DNA of 64,000 bases, from contig CADCKW010000001.1 in assembly GCA_902802115.1 (NCBI GenBank), forward strand, positions 72,409-136,408. Direction: 5' to 3'. Position 1 is the first letter of the stretch; every line of letters begins with the position of its first letter. This document shows positions 8,766 through 51,048 of the stretch, in pieces. This DNA comes from an uncultured Pseudomonadota bacterium. GTDB taxonomy: Bacteria; Pseudomonadota; Alphaproteobacteria; Rs-D84. Made by a program: the position numbers and the translations under genes. The notes under the pieces were generated by a model. That model saw only the letters and a program-made list of their open reading frames with translations, did no database searches and was not told the origin of the DNA.

Positions 8766-10235
8766 ATGATTGATTTAACGATTGTTGAAGCACTAAAAAA
8801 ATTAAAATCGCGTGAAATATCTGCGACCGAATTAACACGTGCGCATTTAAACCGTATCGAAAAATTCGGGGGCGAATTAAATTGCTATATCACAACAACC
8901 CCTGAACGCGCGTTAAGCGATGCAGCGGCGGCTGATGAACGTTATTCACGTGGCACTGCGCGCGTTTTGGACGGTATTCCAATCGCGATGAAGGATTTAT
9001 TTGCAACATGTGGTATTCGCACAACGGCGGCATCACACATGCTGGAAAATTTTGTTCCAGAATATGAATCAACAATTTCACAAAAATATATTGATGCTGG
9101 AACGGTCCTGTTGGGCAAGGCAAACCTGGACGAATTCGCAATGGGCACATTTTCCAAAACTTCCTATTTTGGTGCCCCGGTCAGTCCATGGCAACGCAGT
9201 CGCAGACTCACCGCCGGCGGTTCATCAGGTGGAACAACATCTGCGGTGGCTGGCGGTCTTGCCATGGGCGGCACCGGTACCGACACAGGTGGTTCGATTC
9301 GTTTTCCTGCATCTATTACTGGATTGGTTGGTGTAAAACCAACATACGGTTTATGTTCTCGTTGGGGTTGTATCGCATTTGCATCAAGTCTGGATACCCC
9401 GGGACCAATCGCACGCACCGTTGATGATGCTGCCATTTTATTATCAATTATGGCGGGCCATGATGAAAAAGATTCAACCAGCAGCCCAAATCAAAATTTT
9501 CATATATCGGGCGAATTGGAACCAATCTTGGGCAATGGCAAAAAATTGCGCGTTGGCATAATCAAAGAATTCAAAGATGTTGAAATATCACCTGATATGA
9601 AACGCATATTTGATGCAAGAATTCGCGATTTAGAATCCGCTGGCGCAGAAATAGTCGAAGTTTCAATTCCAAATATTTTGGACGCATTGGCGGCATATTA
9701 CATAATTGCCCCGGCCGAGGCTTCATCAAACCTGGCACGCTATGACGGTGTTCGTTATGGTTTGCGCGTCGAAGGCAAAGATATTTACGATACATACAAA
9801 AAGACGCGTGCTGCTGGCTTTGGCGAGGAAGTACAACGCCGTATGATTATTGGAACCGCGGTTTTATCTTCGGAATCATACGATGTGTATTTTATGCAGG
9901 CCGCACGCGTTCGTCGTTTAATTGCAGATGCTTTCAATCGTGCATTTGAACAATGTGACTTGATTGTATGCCCGGCGGGCGCATCAACCGCACAACCACT
10001 GGACGCAGATTTGTCCCCATTGGAATATTACGCATTGGATTTATTTACCGTTGCCATGAATTTGGCAGGTGTCCCTGCGGTCAGCGTTCCGGCTGGCATG
10101 GCGGAAAATGGTTTGCCATTGGGAATGCAGGTTGTAGGGCGCCGTTTTGACGATTTACGCGCATTGCAATTGGCAAAACATATCCAAGAATTCAGCGGTG
10201 TTGATAATCGTCCAACAAAAATCATGGGTGAATAA
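8766..10235 (+). CDS. gatA: Glutamyl-tRNA(Gln) amidotransferase subunit A (amidase family)
   Basis: 489 aa with the amidase signature (GGSSGG…GTDTGGSIR) and the GatA pattern. Confidence 0.9.
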   Translation: MIDLTIVEALKKLKSREISATELTRAHLNRIEKFGGELNCYITTTPERALSDAAAADERYSRGTARVLDGIPIAMKDLFATCGIRTTAASHMLENFVPEYESTISQKYIDAGTVLLGKANLDEFAMGTFSKTSYFGAPVSPWQRSRRLTAGGSSGGTTSAVAGGLAMGGTGTDTGGSIRFPASITGLVGVKPTYGLCSRWGCIAFASSLDTPGPIARTVDDAAILLSIMAGHDEKDSTSSPNQNFHISGELEPILGNGKKLRVGIIKEFKDVEISPDMKRIFDARIRDLESAGAEIVEVSIPNILDALAAYYIIAPAEASSNLARYDGVRYGLRVEGKDIYDTYKKTRAAGFGEEVQRRMIIGTAVLSSESYDVYFMQAARVRRLIADAFNRAFEQCDLIVCPAGASTAQPLDADLSPLEYYALDLFTVAMNLAGVPAVSVPAGMAENGLPLGMQVVGRRFDDLRALQLAKHIQEFSGVDNRPTKIMGE

Positions 10236-10276
10236 TCAAATGAAAAAAATGTTGGGAAAAAATGAGTATAAAAAAA

Positions 10277-10352
10277 TGGTGGCCAGAAGTGGAATCGAAC
10301 CACTGACACAGGGATTTTCAGTCCCTTGCTCTACCAACTGAGCTATCTGGCC
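10277..10352 (-). tRNA. tRNA-Phe (GAA)
   Basis: The reverse complement folds as a cloverleaf: GGCCAGA-TA-GCTC-AGTTGGTA-GAGC-A-AGGGA-CTGAAAA-TCCCT-GTGTC-AGTGG-TTCGATT-CCACT-TCTGGCC-ACCA. The anticodon is GAA and the CCA is encoded. Confidence 0.85.
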
Positions 10353-10406
10353 ATCCGCAGGGGAAATATTAAAGTATAAAAAAACAAAAAGCAAGGAAAA
10401 ATAAAA

Positions 10407-11930
10407 ATGTATACAATAAAAGGCAAAACAGGTGATTGGGAAGTAGTTGTTGGTTTGGAAACTCATATAGAGGTTTTATCCAACAGTAAAATTTTCAGTG
10501 GTGCGTCCGCAAATTACAATCCAACAATCGCCCCCAATACCCATGTATCATTTGTTGATGCGGCTATGCCAGGCATGTTGCCAGTATTGAACGAATATTG
10601 CGTTGATCAGGCCATTAAATTTGGTTTGGGTATCAATGCAGAAATTTCACGCGTCAGCCGTTTTGCCCGCAAACAATATTTTTACCCTGACCTGCCCCAA
10701 GGATATCAAATTTCGCAACCGGCGGACGAACCACCCGTTGTCGGTCGCGGTTGGGTTGAAATCATCGGCGATGACGGTAATCCCAAAAAGATTTTAATCG
10801 AACGCGCACATTTGGAACAGGACGCGGCAAAAAACAAACATGATATGCACCCAACAAAATCATTTGTTGATTTGAATCGTTCTGGGGTCACATTATTGGA
10901 AATCGTGACATTTTTAGATGTAAAAAATTCAGAAAACAATTCATATATTTCGTCCCCTGACGAAGCCGAACAATATTTGCGTAAAATTCGTGAAATCGCG
11001 CGCGCATTGGGCGTATCCAAGGCAAATATGGAAGAAGGTTCCATGCGTGCCGACGTCAATGTTTCTGTCCGCCGCGCGGGCTCCAAAAAATTTGGAACAC
11101 GCACAGAAACAAAAAACATGGTATCATTTAAATTTATCAAAAACGCCATTGAATACGAGGCAAACCGCCAAGTAGAACTGTTGGAATCCGGCGGCACCGT
11201 CACCCAAGACACTATGCGTTATAACCAAGCCGACGGGACCACATCTGTCCTGCGCAGCAAAGAAGACGCGTTGGATTATCGTTATTTCCCAGACCCAGAT
11301 TTATTGCCATTGGTTATAACCGACGAACGCATTGAACGTATCCGTAAAACAATGCCAGAATTGCCAGAGGCAACACGCGCACGCTATATCAACACATACG
11401 GATTAAACGAATATGATGCGGCACGTTTAACCGAAACAACCGATATTTCACATTGGTTTGATACAGCGGTTGGCAACAAAGCCGAACGTGCCAAACCAAT
11501 TGCAAACTGGATGATTAGTGAATTGTTTGCACACCCTGAAAACTATGATATTACAAATACGGTGCGCGAACGTGATGCGGACGAACCACGCATTATCACA
11601 CCTGAAAATATTGCCGAATTGGTTGATATGATTGGGGCATCCGAAATCAACGGCAAACAGGCCAAAGAAATATTTATCAAAATGTTAGACGGCGAAACCG
11701 GCACACCACATGAAATTGCCGACAAATTTGGTATGAAACAAATGACAGATACCGGCGCCATTGAAAAAATCATTGATGATGTTTTATCACAAAATGCATC
11801 TCAGGTTGAACAATATAAATCTGGCAAGGTTGGATTGTTTGGATTCTTTGTTGGTGCCGTCATGCGTGCAACCGGTGGCAAGGCAAACCCAGGTGTCGTA
11901 AATGAAATTTTGAAAAAGAAGTTGGGTTAA
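10407..11930 (+). CDS. gatB: Glutamyl-tRNA(Gln) amidotransferase subunit B
   Basis: 507 aa with GatB/GatE-family sequence throughout (…WEVVVGLETHIEV…). Confidence 0.9.
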   Translation: MYTIKGKTGDWEVVVGLETHIEVLSNSKIFSGASANYNPTIAPNTHVSFVDAAMPGMLPVLNEYCVDQAIKFGLGINAEISRVSRFARKQYFYPDLPQGYQISQPADEPPVVGRGWVEIIGDDGNPKKILIERAHLEQDAAKNKHDMHPTKSFVDLNRSGVTLLEIVTFLDVKNSENNSYISSPDEAEQYLRKIREIARALGVSKANMEEGSMRADVNVSVRRAGSKKFGTRTETKNMVSFKFIKNAIEYEANRQVELLESGGTVTQDTMRYNQADGTTSVLRSKEDALDYRYFPDPDLLPLVITDERIERIRKTMPELPEATRARYINTYGLNEYDAARLTETTDISHWFDTAVGNKAERAKPIANWMISELFAHPENYDITNTVRERDADEPRIITPENIAELVDMIGASEINGKQAKEIFIKMLDGETGTPHEIADKFGMKQMTDTGAIEKIIDDVLSQNASQVEQYKSGKVGLFGFFVGAVMRATGGKANPGVVNEILKKKLG

Positions 11931-11936
11931 ACAACA

Positions 11937-13235
11937 ATGGCAAAAAAATTTTATATAAAAACTTTTGGTTGCCAAATGAACGTTTATGATGGATTGCGTA
12001 TCGCCGCAATGTTGGAACATCATGGACTCGAAAGCACAGACAATGTCGCCGATGCAGACATAATTTTATTAAACACATGCGCGGTTCGTGCCAAGGCAAC
12101 CGATAAAGTATATTCTGCATTGGGACGCATACGACGCGCAAAAAAACCAGATGCAATATATGGCATTGTTGGTTGCGTTGCACGCGAATCTGGTGCCGAT
12201 GCATTTCGTAAAATCCGCGATTTGAATTTTGTTTTGGGGCCACAAAGTTATCATAAATTGCCTGAAATAATTAAAAATCCAGATAGTAAATTACTGGACA
12301 TTGATTTGGGTGGTTTGGAAAAATTTGATGAATTACCACCAATAACTAAATCACCATTTGTCGCATATATTCCTGTCCAGGAAGGTTGCAATCATTGTTG
12401 TACATATTGCATTGTGCCTTTCACGCGTGGTCGCGAAATATCCAGACCATATAACGATATTTTGGCGGAAACAATGCATGCAGCCGCCGTTGGCGCAATT
12501 GAAATTTGTTTTATCGGTCAAAATGTAAATGGATATAAATACACCGATGAAAATGGAAAAACATATCGTTTATCAGACCTGATAAAACAAACTGCAAAAA
12601 TTGATTCTGTGAAACGAATTCGTTTTACGTCCAGTTATCCAACCGAAATGACAGATGATTTAATTGAACTATTTAAAACCGAATCAAAATTATTACCATT
12701 TTTGAACATGCCAATTCAAAGTGGTTCTAATAATATTTTACAAAAAATGAATCGTCAATATAATCTGGACGAATATATAACAATAATAAATAAATTCAAA
12801 ATTGCCCGTCCAGACATACAAATTTCCAGTGATTTTATCGTTGGTTTTCCTGGCGAAACGAATACTGATTTTGAACAAACCGTCGATATAGCCAAGCAGA
12901 TTAAATACATAAATTCTTATTCATTTAAATATTCGCCCCGGCCTCATACTGCGGCGGCAATTATGCAAAATCAAATTCCAGAAAACATAAAAAGCGAACG
13001 TTTAATAAAACTGGACGCGGTATTGAACGATATTCAACGCGAGTTTAATTTATCATGCCAAGATAAAGTTTTTGATTGCTTATACGAAGGTGCTGATAAA
13101 ACTGGTACAAAACAAATTTATCGCACCCCATATATGCAGCCATGTATTGTTGAAACGGATAATCCAACCCCAATGGCACGCATAAAAATCACATCTGGAA
13201 ACAAATCATGCCTGCATGGAAAAATTGTTGATTAA
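11937..13235 (+). CDS. miaB: Radical-SAM methylthiotransferase, MiaB/RimO family
   Basis: 432 aa. It has the N-terminal MTTase Cys pattern (FGCQMN…NTCAVR…GCV) and the radical-SAM CxxxCxxC motif (CNHCCTYC). Confidence 0.8.
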   Translation: MAKKFYIKTFGCQMNVYDGLRIAAMLEHHGLESTDNVADADIILLNTCAVRAKATDKVYSALGRIRRAKKPDAIYGIVGCVARESGADAFRKIRDLNFVLGPQSYHKLPEIIKNPDSKLLDIDLGGLEKFDELPPITKSPFVAYIPVQEGCNHCCTYCIVPFTRGREISRPYNDILAETMHAAAVGAIEICFIGQNVNGYKYTDENGKTYRLSDLIKQTAKIDSVKRIRFTSSYPTEMTDDLIELFKTESKLLPFLNMPIQSGSNNILQKMNRQYNLDEYITIINKFKIARPDIQISSDFIVGFPGETNTDFEQTVDIAKQIKYINSYSFKYSPRPHTAAAIMQNQIPENIKSERLIKLDAVLNDIQREFNLSCQDKVFDCLYEGADKTGTKQIYRTPYMQPCIVETDNPTPMARIKITSGNKSCLHGKIVD

Positions 13236-14518
13236 AAAGCAAGTTTAACATTTGCAGAAAATTTACCAGTCCAACCAAAATCTGTATCAACCACACCGAT
13301 TGATATGCCACCACCAATTTTATCAGCAACCGTCCATATTGCTAAATCAATCGCGGCATCTAAATACCCGGCTGAATTTATACCGCCACGTAAATTATAT
13401 GAATATGATACACCGTCCATAAAATATTTAAATCCAACATCTGTTCCTGTATGCAACAAATACATATTATCATGCGCATTTGAAATTTTTACATCATTTG
13501 CACTAATTCCAACAAACGGTGATAAAAATAAACCTGATTCAAAATTAAATTTTGCACCAATATCTGTTCCAAAATAATATCCAACCACATTTGGATTGTT
13601 ATTTGATGATGTTTTTATTTTTGCAAAACTTAAACCACCAACACCGCGCACAAACATAACATCATTTAATTCATATAACACACGCAGATTTCCACCATAT
13701 ATCGCATAATCAAAATCATCAACCCCATACTTGAATTCTGCCCCAGATAAATATGCCGTTGCCCCGACAAACAACCGACCGGCAACTTTGGCGCCAGAAT
13801 TCAAACGCAAACCAATTCCATTAAAATCCGATGCGTTATAATAATCAGGTGCCACAGATAAAAAATAATCATCAACAAAATCAAACTTTGCAAATAACTC
13901 GTGTTGATTTATCGCCGATACAGGTCGCAATAATACCGATGGCGTATATTGCAACATTGAATCAATACCTGTCAAACCCGCAGACACCTGGTGTGATGCC
14001 AAATATGATGCCGAATAGCGACGATTTATACACCTACCCGAACCACCGTCACATGCACCCCACTCATACACAAAATCGTTTGATGGATTTGCTTCTTCTA
14101 TATCAGGCGCCCTATTCCAACTTAAATTATGAAAAACAACCAAATCATTTTGTTCGCCATTTATCCCGTTCAAGAAAGGTTCTTGGAATCGAAACACAAC
14201 ATTATCGTTTTGAATTGATAAATCTGTATTAAAATCATTATCTGTTAAAAACGACCCATCAACCAACAATGCAATTCTTTGCGAACCGCCATCTATTTTC
14301 AAAACAGTCGCACCAATGTTATCCAGAGCACTCAATGAATATCCACTACCACCTATGATAACAACCTCTTCATTTACTGGCCGAGATAACGAATCTAAAT
14401 CTGCTGGACTTTCAATTGGCGGAACGAAACCAAACACAGCACGTGTGATAAATAATTCAACCGCCATACAAGATGCCAACATTACATATCTCATATAATA
14501 AAGTCTAATAAAGCACAA
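13232..14518 (-). CDS. Outer-membrane beta-barrel protein (hypothetical)
   Basis: 428 aa ending …NVKLAF (C-terminal Phe). It shows alternating-hydrophobic beta-strand patterns and a signal peptide. The start is uncertain; an alternative ATG is at 14494. Confidence 0.55.
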   Translation of the reverse strand: MCFIRLYYMRYVMLASCMAVELFITRAVFGFVPPIESPADLDSLSRPVNEEVVIIGGSGYSLSALDNIGATVLKIDGGSQRIALLVDGSFLTDNDFNTDLSIQNDNVVFRFQEPFLNGINGEQNDLVVFHNLSWNRAPDIEEANPSNDFVYEWGACDGGSGRCINRRYSASYLASHQVSAGLTGIDSMLQYTPSVLLRPVSAINQHELFAKFDFVDDYFLSVAPDYYNASDFNGIGLRLNSGAKVAGRLFVGATAYLSGAEFKYGVDDFDYAIYGGNLRVLYELNDVMFVRGVGGLSFAKIKTSSNNNPNVVGYYFGTDIGAKFNFESGLFLSPFVGISANDVKISNAHDNMYLLHTGTDVGFKYFMDGVSYSYNLRGGINSAGYLDAAIDLAIWTVADKIGGGISIGVVDTDFGWTGKFSANVKLAF

Positions 14519-42618: not shown

Positions 42619-43539
42619 ATGAAATTATACGACAGATTAAATTTTTTACTATTGGGAACATTATGGATTTTGGCCATAGTGCTGATATTAAATTTTTGGT
42701 TAAATACGGCATACCGTTTTAACATGTTTTCTGCGGCACATTGGGAATATATATCAAATATCCAGGCCCAAAATCTGCCTATATCCAGTGGTTTTTATAT
42801 CGCATTTATTGTATCAATAACCATGGGAATATTGGGGTTATATTTATTATTCCGTCCAAAATTTAGAAAAATAAAATTGCCCATATCACAAAAAACTGTG
42901 ACGCAACAAACCACACCACAACAACCAATTATCAAACCCGAACAAACGGTTCAGCAACCCGCACCACTGGAACAAAAAAACGATATTCAACCGACAAACA
43001 CACAAATATCATCAAATCCAATAATGGCACAACCACCGCGTTTGCATATTCAAATGCCACAAAAAACAGTAAATCGTCCTGTCACAGCAACCCAAAACAC
43101 ACCACAACAAACAAAAAAACAAGAACCCGTTGCGCGCTATACGCATGAAATCCGGGAAATTTTTGAAAAAAATAAATTTATGGTTTTAACACCAAAACCA
43201 ATCAATCGTATTCCTTTGTCATTGATTGCAATTGGTGCAAACGAAACATTATGGATTGGCGCAACCGATATATCACACGAACAAATGAGTGATATAATAT
43301 TGACATTAAAAAATGTATTTAACGAAACACTGGAAGATATTGAAATAGATTTAAATGCATTTATAATAAACCCAACAGATACAGATTTCGTAGATGCAAT
43401 TTTGGATTTAAAAGATATTCAAGAACTAGAATCCGCAATCCAAAATATTCCAAACGAACCTGAATCTGACGAAAACGACAGTATGGACGCTTTTGCTGGA
43501 TATATTGAAACCGTTTTGACATATTTGGGAAATAAATAA
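42619..43539 (+). CDS. Membrane protein with a Gln/Pro-rich linker (hypothetical); operon gene 1 of 4
   Basis: 306 aa with 3 N-terminal TM helices, a Q/P/T-rich low-complexity segment and an acidic C-terminal domain. It overlaps the next gene by 1 nt (TAATG). Confidence 0.5.
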   Translation: MKLYDRLNFLLLGTLWILAIVLILNFWLNTAYRFNMFSAAHWEYISNIQAQNLPISSGFYIAFIVSITMGILGLYLLFRPKFRKIKLPISQKTVTQQTTPQQPIIKPEQTVQQPAPLEQKNDIQPTNTQISSNPIMAQPPRLHIQMPQKTVNRPVTATQNTPQQTKKQEPVARYTHEIREIFEKNKFMVLTPKPINRIPLSLIAIGANETLWIGATDISHEQMSDIILTLKNVFNETLEDIEIDLNAFIINPTDTDFVDAILDLKDIQELESAIQNIPNEPESDENDSMDAFAGYIETVLTYLGNK

Positions 43540-44045
43540 TGAAAATAAGTGAAACAAACGCTATTGCACGCATATCAGAACTGGGCATGGACGATATGCC
43601 CCTGATAGAATACACACCCAAACCAAAACTATTACCGAATGATTGGTTTATGCGTTATCGCGCATTATGCCACGAATTTATGGAATCTTTATCAAATTAT
43701 GCAACCGAAATCGCATTTATGAATTTATCACAAAATGAATTTATGGGGTTATTAACCGGACGTGCATTACCACGAAACACATCTATTCGGTGGCGCATAC
43801 CAATTACACTGGGTGGTGAAATGTCGATTGAAAATATGTTTTTATGCCGCACTTTTCCAAACAGTCACAGACTAGACAGATTCATAATGGAACAAACCGG
43901 CAACGAAACATTATGGTTGCCTAATCCTGAAAAGGCGGTATATATCACAACACATACGGCAACGGGCGGCACCGGCGGAAACGCAACATCTGACCGTCTG
44001 TCCCAGGTCGCCGCACAAATTGCCAAAGATAATTCATTGGGGTAA
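43539..44045 (+). CDS. Hypothetical protein with a degenerate HNH-like motif; operon gene 2 of 4
   Basis: 168 aa. The segment RWRIPITLGGEMSIENMFLCRTFPNSHRLD resembles the HNH core (HH-I-P…GG…N-L…LC…C-H…H), but the first His pair and a Cys are substituted. Confidence 0.5.
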   Translation: MKISETNAIARISELGMDDMPLIEYTPKPKLLPNDWFMRYRALCHEFMESLSNYATEIAFMNLSQNEFMGLLTGRALPRNTSIRWRIPITLGGEMSIENMFLCRTFPNSHRLDRFIMEQTGNETLWLPNPEKAVYITTHTATGGTGGNATSDRLSQVAAQIAKDNSLG

Positions 44046-44048
44046 AAC

Positions 44049-44483
44049 ATGAACCAAACAGAATTTTTAGACACAATAAAAAACAAAGGCGCATTGATTT
44101 GGGGACCATCGAACGCACGCGCCATTGAATACGCAAATTCTAATTTACAGCAAAAAAAATGTGCCATGTTTCCTAATTTTATGATTAGTTTATATACACA
44201 AACGGCTGGAATAAATTTAGGATCCGGATATATATTTGGTCCAACGGAATTACCAAATGGAAACAATTTTCCAATCCCCAGCATCACAGATATAAACACA
44301 GAAATTCAAAACATACCGGCATTGAAAAACAAAACATTATTTGGTCGCAACGATTTATTTTGGTTTGCATTTGATTCTTTTGGAACATGTTATATGTTAA
44401 GCAATATAAATGGCAGCATTTTACGCAAATACGACGACGGATATCGCGCATTATATGATTGCCTGATGGGTGGAAAAATTTAA
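44049..44483 (+). CDS. Hypothetical protein; operon gene 3 of 4
   Basis: 144-aa ORF. It is 3 nt after the previous stop, and the next gene starts immediately after its stop. Confidence 0.5.
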   Translation: MNQTEFLDTIKNKGALIWGPSNARAIEYANSNLQQKKCAMFPNFMISLYTQTAGINLGSGYIFGPTELPNGNNFPIPSITDINTEIQNIPALKNKTLFGRNDLFWFAFDSFGTCYMLSNINGSILRKYDDGYRALYDCLMGGKI

Positions 44484-44687
44484 ATGAAAAAACTATCTGT
44501 ATCTTTATCTGGACATCAAACCAGTATATCACTGGAACCTGAATTTATATTGGAATTACAGCGTATAGCCAAAAATCAAAACACATCGGTCGCGGCAATT
44601 ATTTCCAATATAGACAAAACGCGCAGTGCAAATTCAAATTTATCATCTGCAATACGCGTTTGGATTTTAAACAATATAAAAAACTAA
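44484..44687 (+). CDS. Ribbon-helix-helix domain protein (COG4321-like); operon gene 4 of 4
   Basis: 67 aa. The sequence is LSVSLSGHQTSISLEPEFILELQRIAKNQNTSVAAIISNID…NLSSAIRVWIL, which is the conserved alphaproteobacterial RHH pattern. Confidence 0.6.
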   Translation: MKKLSVSLSGHQTSISLEPEFILELQRIAKNQNTSVAAIISNIDKTRSANSNLSSAIRVWILNNIKN

Positions 44688-45367
44688 TCTTTTTGTTTGT
44701 TTTTTTGTTCTGCCAAATGTGCCAACAATATTTGGTGTGACGATTTTGGCAACTCACTCAACAAAGCATCTGCGCATTGTGATTCTGTCACGAAATCATA
44801 ATTTTTCTCCATCAAAGATATAATTGTATTATGAATTTCATCATCTGAAAATTTTCTTTTTGCCGACCAATTATATTGCATTTTATATGGAACTTTGATG
44901 GGTGACAAAGTATTTATTTTTACCCCTAATTCTGTTGCTAATTTTTTGCGCGCATCATTTGAATTAAACAAACACAAAACTGTATTACGACCATGCGCGG
45001 TTCTGCGAAATTGAATCAAAGGCATACCTTTTTCATCACGCATAGATGCCAAATCTTTATCTTTGATATCACGCACCAAATTAATAATTTTAGAAACAGG
45101 TATTTGATACAATGAAACCAATCGTATCACAGGCGTCCAATGAATATCTTGCACTGGAACTTTTTTTAAATTCACCAAATTAAACCTATTAACAAATTCA
45201 TCAAAATAATCTTTATGTAAAAAATATTGACCGTCACGAAACAAAACACGTTTGCGACCACCCCTTGTATCATAAACAGATTTTAAATTTTGTACCAATG
45301 CATCACGTGATATATCAACATTCGCCCGTATTTTGTCATAATCCAACCAAACATTAGTTTTAAACAT
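44684..45367 (-). CDS. Hypothetical protein
   Basis: 227-aa ORF, convergent with the RHH gene; the two overlap by 4 nt. Confidence 0.5.
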   Translation of the reverse strand: MFKTNVWLDYDKIRANVDISRDALVQNLKSVYDTRGGRKRVLFRDGQYFLHKDYFDEFVNRFNLVNLKKVPVQDIHWTPVIRLVSLYQIPVSKIINLVRDIKDKDLASMRDEKGMPLIQFRRTAHGRNTVLCLFNSNDARKKLATELGVKINTLSPIKVPYKMQYNWSAKRKFSDDEIHNTIISLMEKNYDFVTESQCADALLSELPKSSHQILLAHLAEQKNKQKD

Positions 45368-45408: not shown

Positions 45409-47373
45409 TTAATTACGTTTATCAAGTCTATACGCAATGAAACCGCCAAAAATTGCAATTAGAACAATTATAACAAACCACGCATCACGCCCCAACAACC
45501 TATACAAAGTCATATGGGAACCAGTTGCCACACCGTCCAACACACCAATTTGTCCAATGGGTAATTGCGATATAATTTTACCGTCCGCACCAACAAACGC
45601 ACTAATTCCAGAATAATTAGCCCTGATAACCGGAACACCCGATTCGATTGCCGCCCTGCGCACCATATCCAGATGTTGATATGTCCCCGGCGTTTTTCCA
45701 AACCAAGTATCATTTGTTATATTCACAATCGCATCAACATAATCATTTTTTACAACCGCATTTGAAAATATAATTTCATAGCAAACCGCCGGCGCAAAAA
45801 CAAAACTGGTGTTTTTATCAATACGTAAATCCATCAAACGCGCACCTTGCCCAGCCGTCAAATTTGCAGGTGTTGGAATAAATTTAATTGGACCATATTC
45901 ACCAAACGGCACCAAATGAGATTTACTGTAATAATCTAAAATATCACCATTTTCATTTGCCAAAACCAATGAATTATATACTGACGAATCATAATCAACA
46001 ACATGCGCACCAATTATCACAGGAACATTTAATTGTTTTGCAATCGGCATAAAATCATTTGGACGCAATGCAAACGGATACGATGTTTCTGGATAAATAA
46101 CAACATCAATATTGCGAACATCACCCGCCAATTTTATCAATGCATCAACACGATTTTTTGCCTGATTCAATGCGTCCGCACGCGTCATAGAAATTTTAGA
46201 TTCTTGACTGGTCACTGGTTGAACGACACGAATTCGCGTTGCACTATTACCCATATTTGATATTCCAATATTATTATATCCTGCAAACAACCCAACAACC
46301 AAAACCAGCATAAAAAACACAAACAAAAACCAATTCGCTTTGCCACCACGATTATATAATAATTGCACAGACGATGCAATCAAACCAAATATCACAAATC
46401 CTAATCCCAATGCACCAAACAACGACATAGAATTCGAAATAATTGCGCCACCCAAAGTAATATTTGCAATTGGATTCCATGGAAACCCAGTCAAAAACCA
46501 TTCACGCAACCACAACACCGCAGTTGCCGACAAAGCAAAAACCATTGGTTTTACACTATTTTCATTGTATATACATCGTGTCAATACAAATGGAATTGTG
46601 AATATAATTGCGCCAACCAATGCCAATCCAATCAATGCCGGCCCGGTCCAAATTGCAAATTGTTTTGTTAATTCCGGAACAACATATATGGAATTTAACG
46701 ACCACCAAAACATAGAAATTGAATACATGGCACCAAACGGAATCGCACGCAGCCAAACCCGCCACCAAGAAACTTTGTCATCACCCATACACAGCAACCA
46801 ATATGCCGCCCCAAATGCCAAAATTGTTATCCACCATAAATTAAAAGGCGCAAAACCCAACGATGCCAAACCACCCAGCACCCCAACCAACACATATTTC
46901 CACCATTTAAACCCAGAAACATTTTCATCAGCATACGGATTTTTAAACCCTAACTTTTTCAAAACTTTAATTTCTTTGGCCTCCATAACACGCGCCTGGG
47001 CATCAGTCAAATGATCATAACCCAACAAATGAAACATACCATGCACAACCATATGCGCCGTATGTTCAGCCACAGAAATATTCGCCGCCGCCGCTTCACG
47101 TTTTACAGTATCCAACGATATATAAATATCCCCCAACAAAATATCGTCACCCAATTCAAAAGACAAAACATTTGTTGGTTTATCCATATTACGATACATT
47201 TTATTCATCGCATGAATTTCATTATCATCAGTCAAAGTAATAGAAACCTCGGCATCACGATATTTTGCGCCAACAACCGCATTTGCAATTTTTTCAAAAT
47301 CTATATTATATTTTTTCCAACGTGAATCATTGTAATTAACATAAACTTTCATTTTTATCGCCTCTATACGCAT
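45409..47373 (-). CDS. ybeY-lnt: Fusion protein: endoribonuclease YbeY (N-terminus) + apolipoprotein N-acyltransferase Lnt (C-terminus)
   Basis: 654-aa single ORF. Residues about 1-150 carry the YbeY metal motif HGMFHLLGYDH and the C-terminal …LKKLGFKNPY. Polytopic Lnt follows directly (FAPFNLWWI…), with a CN-hydrolase domain (VVIYPE…, catalytic Cys in APAVCYEIIF). No stop separates them. Confidence 0.75.
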   Translation of the reverse strand: MRIEAIKMKVYVNYNDSRWKKYNIDFEKIANAVVGAKYRDAEVSITLTDDNEIHAMNKMYRNMDKPTNVLSFELGDDILLGDIYISLDTVKREAAAANISVAEHTAHMVVHGMFHLLGYDHLTDAQARVMEAKEIKVLKKLGFKNPYADENVSGFKWWKYVLVGVLGGLASLGFAPFNLWWITILAFGAAYWLLCMGDDKVSWWRVWLRAIPFGAMYSISMFWWSLNSIYVVPELTKQFAIWTGPALIGLALVGAIIFTIPFVLTRCIYNENSVKPMVFALSATAVLWLREWFLTGFPWNPIANITLGGAIISNSMSLFGALGLGFVIFGLIASSVQLLYNRGGKANWFLFVFFMLVLVVGLFAGYNNIGISNMGNSATRIRVVQPVTSQESKISMTRADALNQAKNRVDALIKLAGDVRNIDVVIYPETSYPFALRPNDFMPIAKQLNVPVIIGAHVVDYDSSVYNSLVLANENGDILDYYSKSHLVPFGEYGPIKFIPTPANLTAGQGARLMDLRIDKNTSFVFAPAVCYEIIFSNAVVKNDYVDAIVNITNDTWFGKTPGTYQHLDMVRRAAIESGVPVIRANYSGISAFVGADGKIISQLPIGQIGVLDGVATGSHMTLYRLLGRDAWFVIIVLIAIFGGFIAYRLDKRN

Positions 47374-47388
47374 TGATTCTGGGAATTT

Positions 47389-47754
47389 TTATTTTTTACC
47401 CAATCCAGATTTTTTTGCAATTTTCGACCTGACATTTGCATAATTTGGTGCAACAAATGGATAATCATCTGGCAATCCCCACTTTGCACGATATTGTTCA
47501 GGCGTCATATTAAATCGCCGTTTAATATATCGCCGCAACATAACATGCCACGTTCCATCTTCCAGACATTGAATTCTATCTGGTTGGACCGAATCAGCAA
47601 TTTGTTGGGGACTGACCACCGTTCCACGCAAAATTGCCCGCGCAGAATTAACCGCGTCCGCCATAGATAAATCAGGATTATTCGCCATTGCCGCCGCCGC
47701 CAGATTCGCAACAGCCAATGTAAATTCATTATTTTTCGTATTATTATTTACCAT
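47389..47754 (-). CDS. mucR: MucR/Ros-family transcriptional regulator (variant zinc-finger ligands)
   Basis: 121 aa. The sequence is …IQCLEDGTWHVML…MTPEQYRAKWGLPDDYPFVAPNYANVRSKIAKKSGLG, a hallmark MucR C-terminus. CLEDG replaces CLECG. Confidence 0.7.
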   Translation of the reverse strand: MVNNNTKNNEFTLAVANLAAAAMANNPDLSMADAVNSARAILRGTVVSPQQIADSVQPDRIQCLEDGTWHVMLRRYIKRRFNMTPEQYRAKWGLPDDYPFVAPNYANVRSKIAKKSGLGKK

Positions 47755-49107: not shown

Positions 49108-49129
49108 CGCCAAATTGGCGTTATTTTTT
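49100..49129. terminator. Bidirectional rho-independent terminator
   Basis: The sequence aaaaataacgccaaattggcgttatttttt lies between rarA and the convergent OMP gene. Confidence 0.7.
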
Positions 49130-49853
49130 AAAACAAAATATTTAAATACATACCAACCGCAGATTCTTCGTTTTCATATTCATATGAATATGTTGCGCCA
49201 TATTGTGTTCGTCCAAATTGACGCACCAATTTGAAACGCAACCATTCGCGGTCAAAGTCAGGATTTGTCGCAACACGAATTGTTGCACCAATACCCAAAC
49301 GCCAACCATCAACCATACGAAAATATGAATCAGGCATAAAATCAATATATGACATGCCACGTGTATCATCAAAAATCCATGTTGATTTAACAGTTCCCGC
49401 CAAAGACACACCTGCCCATTGACGACCGACGCGCAATCCCGCAAAATATGTTGATTTTGCAAAGTCTGGTTCCCGCACATGACGATTACCACCAAACCGC
49501 GCACCGAACAAAACATCTGTTAAAATACGTGCCGAATTATTATCTGCCAATCCTGCACGATAAACACCGTTTAATTCAATACTGGAAAAACCGCGTTCTT
49601 TGCGTTCATGCACAAAATCGAACTGATAATGAATATTTGCACCGGCGGTCAAACGACTGTTCAAACCATATGAAAAAGCCTGACCTAAACGCAAAATATC
49701 ATTACCATAATCAACAGATGTTGTTGATAATAAATGTTCTGCGTCCAACAGATACAACATATCAGATGTATCTGCCATCAAATAATCATCATCTGCATAT
49801 GCGACGCCACACAACAAAACAGTTCCAACAAAACCACATAATAACTTTTTCAT
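49128..49853 (-). CDS. Outer-membrane beta-barrel protein (hypothetical)
   Basis: 241 aa with a signal peptide. It ends …YLNILF with a C-terminal Phe. Confidence 0.6.
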   Translation of the reverse strand: MKKLLCGFVGTVLLCGVAYADDDYLMADTSDMLYLLDAEHLLSTTSVDYGNDILRLGQAFSYGLNSRLTAGANIHYQFDFVHERKERGFSSIELNGVYRAGLADNNSARILTDVLFGARFGGNRHVREPDFAKSTYFAGLRVGRQWAGVSLAGTVKSTWIFDDTRGMSYIDFMPDSYFRMVDGWRLGIGATIRVATNPDFDREWLRFKLVRQFGRTQYGATYSYEYENEESAVGMYLNILF

Positions 49854-49872: not shown

Positions 49873-51048
49873 TTAGAATTGGAACATAACTTGCAACCCA
49901 ACCGACCATTCGCGGAATTTAGACAAATCAACATACGCATAATGTGCCGGGTCATTAAACTGTGCCGCCGTTGCAGGCAAAGTTCCATCATGCACGACCA
50001 AAGTCTTGTCATCTGCGCTGTCATACAAAGATGTTTTTGCATACAGATTCAATGCAAACCAATCATTTGGCTGCCAACCGAATGCACCTTTGATAGAAAA
50101 CTGGTCATGCCAATCATAGAAACCATATAAACCTTCAACATTTAAAGTCCAATCTTCTGCCAATACGGTCCAAACACCCATACCTAATTCGCCCATAAAA
50201 ACAGTATCTGTTGAATCGCCATAAACCAACATACCCCATTCGTTCGTGGTCAGGTTTTCCATATAATCACCATAAACATCACCGTCCATATTCACCAACC
50301 AACCGCGTGCCAAACCATAGATTGTTGATGTTGCGACTTTATACCCTGCCTTTAAATCAGCAATAAAATAATCAACACCATGTTTTTGATGTTCATAATA
50401 CCCAGATATCGTTGCAATCCAATCGTCTGTATCAACAATACGCCCCTGCAAACCCAAACCATACAGATTCAAACCATTTGATTTATATTCATCTGTACCT
50501 GCACCGGCGGTATCTGTCCATATTAATTTATCACGATTGTATTTACCCATTGCCTGCAAAGCGATACGGTCAGTCAAACCAAAACTCAAATCTTCCTTTA
50601 AAGACAATTCTTTTAATTTTCTGGCGACTTCGCCTGTGGCATTACCAAAATTATATTTACCCTCTAAATATTCACCGGTGGTCACCGAACCAAATTGAAA
50701 TTGCAAAGGCTGATAAAAAGGATTTGCAATAAAATATTTCCGCTTTGCAGATTTACGATATGTTTCACCACGAACATATGTTTGTTTATTTTCACGTGGT
50801 TTTACCTGACTATAATGACGTGGTTCATAATTTGTATTGATATTATCATACATACCCGCACGCGACGCACGTGGCGCATAATCATTAGAATAAGATTCAT
50901 ACGCACTACGATTTATACGGATAGTATCCCCATCAGAATTTGTCATATTGATACTGGAATACATAGAACTGCGGCCCGCCGCATTAACATCTGCACCAAA
51001 CGCAACACAGCCCAAAACTGCGAAAATCCCAAAAAATTTGATATTCAT
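49873..51048 (-). CDS. Outer-membrane beta-barrel protein (hypothetical)
   Basis: 391 aa with a signal peptide (…AFGADVNA). It ends …LQVMFQF and has aromatic-rich beta strands. Confidence 0.6.
   Translation of the reverse strand: MNIKFFGIFAVLGCVAFGADVNAAGRSSMYSSINMTNSDGDTIRINRSAYESYSNDYAPRASRAGMYDNINTNYEPRHYSQVKPRENKQTYVRGETYRKSAKRKYFIANPFYQPLQFQFGSVTTGEYLEGKYNFGNATGEVARKLKELSLKEDLSFGLTDRIALQAMGKYNRDKLIWTDTAGAGTDEYKSNGLNLYGLGLQGRIVDTDDWIATISGYYEHQKHGVDYFIADLKAGYKVATSTIYGLARGWLVNMDGDVYGDYMENLTTNEWGMLVYGDSTDTVFMGELGMGVWTVLAEDWTLNVEGLYGFYDWHDQFSIKGAFGWQPNDWFALNLYAKTSLYDSADDKTLVVHDGTLPATAAQFNDPAHYAYVDLSKFREWSVGLQVMFQF

Follow-up and report, generated by a model that had tools for sequence, protein, structure and literature searches.

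A conserved fusion of the ybeY and lnt genes in a lineage of uncultured gut Alphaproteobacteria

The 64,000-nucleotide stretch of DNA analysed in this study (hereafter the window; GenBank assembly GCA_902802115.1, contig CADCKW010000001.1, positions 72,409 to 136,408) belongs to an uncultured alphaproteobacterium of the GTDB lineage Rs-D84. On its reverse strand, at positions 45409..47373, the genes for the endoribonuclease YbeY and the apolipoprotein N-acyltransferase Lnt are found to be joined in a single open reading frame (ORF). It is likely, in our judgement, that this ybeY::lnt gene is genuine, old and vertically inherited, and that it encodes a bifunctional inner-membrane protein. YbeY is a zinc-dependent endoribonuclease involved in the 3'-end maturation of 16S rRNA and in ribosome quality control; it is a near-universal ribosome-maturation factor, often essential, whose mode of action is debated. 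Lnt attaches the third acyl chain to lipoproteins and is built of eight transmembrane (TM) helices and a periplasmic nitrilase-fold domain.

Results

The ORF runs from its first ATG at 47373 to the stop codon at 45409-45411 without any internal stop and gives 654 amino acids, exactly as a preliminary description of this DNA had reported. The true start of the fusion is probably the eighth codon (M8, ATG at 47352), which would give a product of 647 amino acids, because almost all the aligned orthologs begin at the residue equal to M8 (MKVYVNY) and because this ATG is preceded by a Shine-Dalgarno sequence, AGAGG, 8 nucleotides upstream at 47361..47365 (reverse strand), whereas none precedes the ATG at 47373. 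Residue numbers of the fusion are counted from the first ATG (M1) unless M8 numbering is stated.

Pfam analysis of the fused protein placed YbeY at residues 24-141 (E-value 1.2e-34), LNT_N at 167-329 (6e-18) and CN_hydrolase at 408-612 (4e-23). Both families score far beyond chance and lie above the curated cut-offs: PF02130 (YbeY) scored 119 bits against a cut-off of 25 bits, the YbeY equivalog TIGR00043 scored 127 bits against 45 bits with profile positions 5-145 of 146 covered, and the lnt equivalog TIGR00546 scored 217 bits against 132.9 with positions 1-395 of 395 covered. When compared with the PDB sequences by phmmer, the N-terminal part matched residues 23-153 of the 155 residues of E. 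coli YbeY, and the rest of the fusion matched solved Lnt proteins from TM1 to the C-terminus, E. coli Lnt being reached to its own C-terminus. As each part aligns over its full length, two complete proteins are seen to be joined head to tail.

The complete YbeY domain, predicted to be cytoplasmic, occupies 46933..47352 (residues 8-147; delimited by PF02130, TIGR00043, alignment with E. coli YbeY and Foldseek) and holds the zinc-binding motif HGMFHLLGYDH at 47011..47043 (residues 111-121), in which H111, H115 and H121 correspond to H114, H118 and H124 of the E. coli enzyme. It is followed by the linker ADENVSGFKWW at 46900..46932 (residues 148-158), lying between the C-terminal NPY of YbeY and TM1 of Lnt. 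The Lnt membrane domain with TM helices 1-7 is at 46234..46899 (residues 159-380; LNT_N, AlphaFold2 helices 150-365 in M8 numbering, Foldseek), the periplasmic CN-hydrolase domain of nitrilase fold at 45514..46233 (residues 381-620; PF00795, TIGR00546) and the C-terminal TM helix 8 at 45412..45513 (residues 621-654; AlphaFold2 helix 622-646 in M8 numbering, alignment with E. coli Lnt). The Lnt catalytic residues were located by alignment with P. aeruginosa Lnt at E429 (46087-46089), K484 (45922-45924) and C531 (45781-45783), and all these features are on the reverse strand. The strings quoted in the preliminary description were all recovered, namely the zinc motif, KVLKKLGFKNPY ending at residue 147, ADENVSGFKWWKYVLVGVLGG, and APAVCYEIIF with its cysteine at residue 531. 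The junction, which it had placed at about 46,900-46,960, reads NPY-ADENVSGFKWW-KYVLVGV at about 46900-46932; it contains no stop, and the linker has no in-frame start codon.

The fused architecture was found to be widespread in independent data. From 5.8 billion proteins, a word-indexed search gave 1586 hits, and the best 120 clusters were examined for architecture. The three Pfam domains are present together in at least 120 protein clusters, with 53-98% identity and lengths of 640-686 amino acids, which stem from assemblies of NCBI, ENA, JGI and Logan, hundreds of them independent, with contigs of up to 887 kb. An exhaustive HMMER search of 1.84 billion representatives at 50% identity gave eight distant full-length fused representatives at 33-57% identity (P0121-P0125, P0128, P0137 and P0138). 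Below these, fragments aside, only ordinary Lnt proteins of 460-570 amino acids were met, matching query residues ~155-650. Since fused proteins score from both halves and would outrank plain Lnt, the YbeY-Lnt architecture appears to be confined to one lineage.

At closer range, a Logan contig that was assembled separately encodes an identical 654-residue protein, and a strain with 98.4% nucleotide identity (L085) keeps the frame and the same gene length with no indel. The two alternatives offered earlier were a genuine fusion and a stop codon lost to sequencing or assembly error, and a comparison of the junction in related genomes had been suggested to separate them. The junction is uninterrupted in the fused relatives, including L085 and the Logan contig, which supports a genuine fusion. 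A lost stop is ruled out by the conservation of the open frame across the independent assemblies of at least 120 clusters, by the eight distant representatives, by the identical protein on a separate contig and by L085.

Two alignments, one of 22 and one of 96 fused orthologs, show that both halves of the protein are conserved at the residues required for catalysis. In YbeY, the zinc ligands H111, H115 and H121 are invariant in the 96 fused orthologs as well as in all 92 fused and unfused YbeY sequences compared. On the Lnt side, E429 (in PET), K484 and E492 (in KSHLVPFGEY) and C531-Y532-E533 (CYE) are invariant in the 96 orthologs, and these motifs align with the same motifs of the solved P. 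aeruginosa Lnt. In E. coli numbering, the catalytic triad is E267, K335 and C387, accompanied by E343, Y388 and E389.

In E. coli YbeY, R59 and K61, together with T42, R44 and D85, have been described as residues of the activity and of the uS11 interface (PMC5101352). The equivalent of R59 is kept in 29 of 30 fused sequences and that of D85 in all 30, the T42 position is serine in the fused proteins, and the R44 and K61 positions are occupied by T/I and M/I. The last two also vary in free alphaproteobacterial YbeY, and for this reason their loss was not taken to mean degeneration. Of all segments of the fusion YbeY is the best conserved: its median identity to the window protein is 76%, compared with 52-56% in the Lnt parts. 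In comparison with L085, 21 synonymous and 10 non-synonymous codon changes gave a ratio of non-synonymous to synonymous rates (dN/dS, NG86) of 0.126 overall, 0.04 for YbeY and 0.145 for Lnt, figures which rest on just 31 substitutions. Both halves of the fusion are under purifying selection.

The AlphaFold2 model predicted from the 96-sequence alignment has a mean pLDDT (predicted local distance difference test) of 85.9 and a pTM (predicted template-modelling score) of 0.76, and shows two folded modules; only one periplasmic loop and the linker (residues 142-144 of the model, in M8 numbering) have a pLDDT below 50. In Foldseek, the YbeY part matched E. coli 1xm5 with a target TM-score of 0.78-0.80, a root mean square deviation of 2.6 A and 38% identity, and the Lnt part matched solved Lnt structures with a target TM-score of 0.72-0.78. 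TM helices and a beta-rich domain are seen in the modelled Lnt part, as in an eight-TM Lnt with a periplasmic nitrilase-fold domain, the N-in orientation being taken from the solved homologs. The fused YbeY and Lnt most likely keep their separate activities.

The origin of the fusion was analysed by scanning one genome per GTDB species; 80 loci were returned and were analysed with hidden Markov models (HMMs) of the two halves. A separate ybeY upstream of lnt, mostly ~0.8-1.8 kb away, is the canonical arrangement and was found in 59 unfused alphaproteobacterial loci. In three loci checked, the gene between them has CBS and CorC_HlyC domains (corC), and miaB and phoH lie upstream, so that the miaB-phoH-ybeY-corC-lnt neighbourhood, previously put forward as the norm, is indeed seen in other Alphaproteobacteria. 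Three further gut-derived loci (L008, L020 and L058) have miaB-phoH-ybeY-lnt without corC; here ybeY ends in TAA or TAG and lnt starts 3-46 nucleotides further on. The fused gene is thus a composite whose components occur as separate genes elsewhere, apart in 59 loci and adjacent in three. In L008 (8400-8620) and L020 (8420-8760) ybeY and lnt are in the same frame, with TAA or TAG and 1-3 codons before the ATG of lnt, and one point mutation would be sufficient to fuse them. Recoding of the stop codon in these two loci was considered and rejected, as TAA and TAG each have the lnt ATG within 3-9 nucleotides. As direct ancestors of the fusion the adjacent unfused lineages are unsupported, being placed elsewhere in the tree; they illustrate an intermediate state.

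The fused loci L001-L007 are single ORFs. In the deep-branching fused L006, L007 and P0137 the order is (gatC-gatA-gatB-)miaB-ybeY::lnt with phoH also gone, L007 having gatB-miaB-fusion, and L088 has gatCAB-miaB-fusion. In the window, gatA, a tRNA-Phe gene on the opposite strand, gatB and miaB lie on the forward strand at 8766..13235 (Pfam, NCBIfam and tRNA search), probably as a remnant of the ancestral neighbourhood; miaB itself, a MiaB equivalog in NCBIfam, is at 11937..13235. The fusion is 32 kb from miaB, behind a mucR-family gene, and closer relatives share that arrangement. Because deeper-branching fused lineages have miaB directly upstream of the fusion, this would be the original order in the fused clade and the 32-kb separation a later rearrangement. 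HMMs of alphaproteobacterial PhoH and CorC found no homolog in the 64-kb window or in any fused locus retrieved, which bears out the earlier remark that phoH and corC are absent between miaB and the fusion. Likewise, no second ybeY or lnt was found in the window or in the fused loci retrieved (flanks up to 10 kb).

When neighbour-joining trees of the Lnt domain were bootstrapped, 58 of 60 replicates separated 29 of the 30 fused sequences from all others, and the YbeY domain groups alike. Since these 29 sequences form one exclusive group, the trees indicate one old fusion followed by vertical descent. P0138 (L087:258-2231), a protein of the same architecture from a GC-rich 'Rickettsiales' metagenome-assembled genome (MAG), is placed apart from the main fused clade by the Lnt and YbeY trees alike; its context also differs, MlaD being encoded upstream and DksA downstream. 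This may reflect either a second, independent fusion or a long-branch effect. Three short YbeY-only hits (P0141, P0148 and P0222) break off in the linker or run into frameshift-like sequence; they resemble broken fusions and were rejected as free YbeY paralogs.

The MAGs in which the fused loci were found derive from rumen, caecum and faeces and are labelled Alphaproteobacteria or "Rickettsiales"; Candidatus Enterousia is among them. L005, the GTDB representative of Candidatus Enterousia, carries a fusion 52% identical to the window protein, and identity to the fused proteins of Rs-D84-like species representatives is 51-55%. In the NCBI taxonomy, Candidatus Enterousia is placed in Alphaproteobacteria incertae sedis, and Enterousia has been assigned to the GTDB order Rs-D84, whose members are gut bacteria with genomes mostly < 1 Mbp and a probable dependence on partners, Enterousia genomes being likewise < 1 Mbp (PMC12306168). 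The link to genome reduction that had been proposed for the fusion fits these relatives. To judge by its 38% GC, its synteny with these MAGs and the 51-55% identity of its fused protein, the window itself would belong to Rs-D84 too. In L005, a 97-residue ORF matching the Lnt HMM (10023-10313; E-value 6e-32) directly follows the complete fusion and may be a partial duplication or an assembly quirk.

Discussion

In Lnt both the N- and the C-terminus are cytoplasmic and the nitrilase-fold domain is periplasmic, which is also the case in the solved structures matched here. As the N-terminus of Lnt faces the cytoplasm, YbeY would remain cytoplasmic and the fusion would be topologically sound. The fused YbeY is probably anchored to the inner membrane, where it would be tethered to the inner face in a 1:1 ratio with Lnt. 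We consider a bifunctional protein with independently working halves to be most probable, and direct catalytic coupling is unlikely because the two active sites are on opposite sides of the membrane.

A possible course of events can be proposed from the related loci. Beginning with a canonical miaB-phoH-ybeY-corC-lnt string, corC and phoH would have been lost, the stop of ybeY would have come to lie next to the start of lnt, and this stop codon would then have been lost, an order of steps which we infer from the gene arrangements. The fusion would thus be a probable by-product of genome compaction, tolerated as its topology permits it and as both genes are needed.

Several points weigh against this account of one old fusion giving a bifunctional membrane protein. 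The neighbour-joining trees are simple distance trees, and in the Lnt tree the adjacent unfused lineages are not sister to the fused clade but group with a canonical lineage elsewhere. The number of substitutions behind the dN/dS figures is small, and the orientation of the Lnt N-terminus is taken from solved homologs. In addition, the linker between NPY and TM1 has only about 8-11 residues in the window's subclade, and so short a tether could hinder YbeY from reaching the 30S platform, its site of binding with uS11 and Era in E. coli (PMC5101352, PMC11445079). A very short linker therefore leaves room for cleavage or for an altered role of YbeY.

The first alternative to be considered is that the ORF is fused but two proteins are made from it, either through an internal non-canonical start of Lnt or through a protease cutting the linker and freeing soluble YbeY. 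The linker is the least conserved and the least confidently modelled segment, in-frame GTG and TTG codons sit inside TM1 of the window gene, and a free YbeY would escape the steric problem of reaching the 30S subunit. On the other hand, use of these GTG or TTG codons would truncate the TM1 helix. The preliminary description had named an internal ribosome-binding site and start for Lnt as the finding that would speak against a true fusion; in eight fused genes analysed at the DNA level, no in-frame ATG, GTG or TTG of the junction is preceded by a Shine-Dalgarno sequence, and in two of them (L086 and L001) the stretch from NPY to the end of TM1 lacks in-frame start codons altogether. Separate translation of Lnt from a conserved internal site is not supported. 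Nor is there a conserved cleavage-like motif: the stretch from NPY to GFAPF (the end of TM1) is variable in sequence, spans 22-61 residues among the orthologs and has no conserved Met. A promoter and terminator scan gave 16 promoter-like sites against 16.5 expected from shuffled sequence and is uninformative, being no richer than chance. Taken together, the production of two proteins is considered unlikely, and we infer that the gene would be translated as one stable polypeptide of 74 kDa.

The linker itself differs between subclades. In a sister subclade (~55% identity; P0099 / L001:8001-10043) a cysteine-rich insertion of 20-35 residues is present in it, and this was found in 33 of the 94 fused orthologs with a delimitable junction (alignment A2). 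It typically reads C-x4-5-C-CPG followed by an amphipathic K/R-rich helix, the extreme case being ECNCGCGGKCNCVDCKCKNCSCCNCPGDKTISFFKKIK. Since neither the deep-branching fused lineages nor the window's subclade has it, the insertion looks secondary; it may be a metal-binding or membrane-surface element.

A second alternative is that the coupling of the two enzymes is adaptive, YbeY being tethered to Lnt so that late 30S maturation or ribosome quality control takes place at the membrane or so that lipoprotein maturation is linked to ribosome biogenesis. The fusion would then be a Rosetta-stone signal explaining the shared ybeY/lnt operon of Proteobacteria. Its retention across a radiation of 33-98% identity favours such a role, as would an independent fusion of the P0138 lineage in another gene context. 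Membrane anchoring of RNA-processing enzymes is also generally known: RNase E, through an amphipathic helix, and RNase Y, through an N-terminal TM helix, are held at the cytoplasmic face of the inner membrane. These enzymes have dedicated anchors, whereas here the anchor would be a complete and unrelated lipoprotein-maturation enzyme, and the location of YbeY is a predicted one. In E. coli, moreover, ybeY and lnt share the ybeZYX-lnt operon (bioRxiv 10.1101/2023.03.20.533420). Against adaptive coupling, fusions of neighbouring operon genes are expected from genome compaction, and the membrane separates the two active sites. The lack of conservation in the linker, together with the extra 20-35 residues that it accommodates in part of the clade, argues against a precise interdomain geometry, and no experimental link between YbeY and Lnt activities turned up in our literature searches. 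An adaptive coupling is accordingly judged improbable.

In its strongest form, which we likewise hold to be a long shot, the fused YbeY would be the only YbeY of these reduced genomes and would act membrane-immobilised through its ~10-residue linker, so that quality control of the small ribosomal subunit and the last trimming of its 3' end would occur at the membrane and a real link would exist between ribosome biogenesis and lipoprotein maturation. If true, a sole, membrane-held YbeY could explain the long-noted association of ybeY and lnt in one operon, and an independent fusion in P0138 would strengthen the case.

A third alternative, that the YbeY module has lost its RNase function and is kept as a structural or regulatory N-terminal domain of Lnt, is very improbable. 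It could draw on the non-conserved equivalents of E. coli R44 and K61 (T/I and M/I) and on the missing partner PhoH/YbeZ in the window and the examined loci. The same two positions, however, vary in free alphaproteobacterial YbeY, the three zinc histidines are invariant, R59 and D85 are kept as described above, and YbeY is the best-conserved segment with the lowest dN/dS. Finally, that ybeY and lnt are truly separate adjacent genes whose stop or frameshift was lost in assembly is next to impossible: a single-base error could mimic a fusion where, as in L008 and L020, one stop stands between the genes in the same frame, and the short entries P0148 and P0222 resemble frameshifted versions, but the open frame recurs down to 53% identity and in the eight distant representatives, the 31 codon changes that separate the gene from L085 include no indel, and no lnt start codon remains in the junction.

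The bifunctional fusion can be compared with the known forms of its two halves. Its N-terminal half resembles E. coli YbeY (PDB 1XM5) in coverage, in the H-x3-H-x5-H motif, in the R59 and D85 equivalents and in fold. Known bacterial YbeY proteins are small and soluble, whereas the fused YbeY lacks its own stop and is joined at its C-terminus to a polytopic membrane protein; its usual operon partners PhoH/YbeZ and CorC/YbeX are absent from the window. The second half shares with the solved Lnt proteins (PF20154 and PF00795; PDB 5N6M, 5N6H and 5VRG) the eight-TM bundle, the periplasmic nitrilase-fold domain and the Glu-Lys-Cys triad. It differs from them in having no start of its own, in carrying a cytoplasmic N-terminal RNase domain of 150 residues and in an identity of just 20-24%.

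With respect to the ybeZYX-lnt operon, the same genes stand in the same order and orientation, and deeper fused lineages keep miaB directly upstream; in contrast, phoH and corC have disappeared, ybeY has merged with lnt, and the window fusion has moved away from miaB to follow a mucR-family gene. The adjacent unfused pairs of L008, L020 and L058 are similar in the loss of corC and in the closeness of lnt to ybeY, in frame in two cases, whereas they keep the stop and a separate lnt start, have phoH and are not sister to the fused clade.

Full-text literature searches, whose coverage was incomplete, brought up no account of a YbeY-Lnt fusion, which is absence of evidence only. In the public databases the fused proteins are named solely "apolipoprotein N-acyltransferase", and surveys based on names would for this reason score fused genomes as lacking ybeY. 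Both enzyme families are well known and the composite architecture is already in the databases, and probably no new mechanism is involved. A YbeY that appears to be permanently tethered to the membrane offers a natural experiment: should no other copy exist, YbeY must be able to work while anchored. The related loci display stages of compaction, in which an intervening gene is lost, neighbours come to abut in frame and a stop is lost. As a shared character, the fusion cleanly marks a clade of uncultured Alphaproteobacteria from the gut. Since it is likeliest a tolerated by-product of genome reduction, its biological impact may be modest.

Neighbouring genes

Upstream of the fusion, on the same strand, a gene for a ROS/MucR-family regulator is found at 47389..47754 (recognised by Pfam ROS_MUCR in syntenic loci as well as on the contig with the identical protein). 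It is 15 nucleotides from the first ATG of the fusion and 36 nucleotides from M8, and may be co-transcribed with it. In some relatives a gene of 610-664 amino acids lies between mucR and the fusion (L082:8151-9983, L001:6108-7976 and L002:5995-7989), the L082 product having only weak TPR-repeat Pfam hits; no such gene is present in the window.

On the other side, Pfam and NCBIfam gave no hit for a 227-residue ORF at 44684-45367 (reverse strand), 41 nucleotides downstream of the fusion. This ORF is a variable insert, since it is present in the closest relatives L085 and L086 and absent from the 72%-identity relative L082. Beside the fusion there are also four co-directional genes at 42619-44687 (forward strand), whose products have 306 residues (with an N-terminal membrane segment and a Q/P-rich stretch), 168 residues, 144 residues and 67 residues (RHH_4). 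The 144-residue protein gave a weak sub-threshold hit to the YrhA family, and the cluster has no confident family except RHH_4. It is syntenic in L082 and L086, and L001-L003, as well as L005 in part, have ORFs that match it in size, order and strand.

Further away, two tandem ORFs of 241 and 391 amino acids (49128-49853 and 49873-51048, reverse strand) have no hit in the NCBIfam or Pfam annotation; their signal-peptide-like N-termini and C-terminal aromatic residues suggest outer-membrane beta-barrels. Convergent with miaB, a 428-residue ORF at 13232-14518 (reverse strand) without a Pfam or NCBIfam hit occupies the ancestral position of phoH-ybeY. Over the window as a whole (1-64000, ~38% GC) the GC skew is negative in nearly all 2-kb segments, with a cumulative value of -5.7, and most genes are on the reverse strand, which is consistent with a single replichore arm and a strong strand bias.

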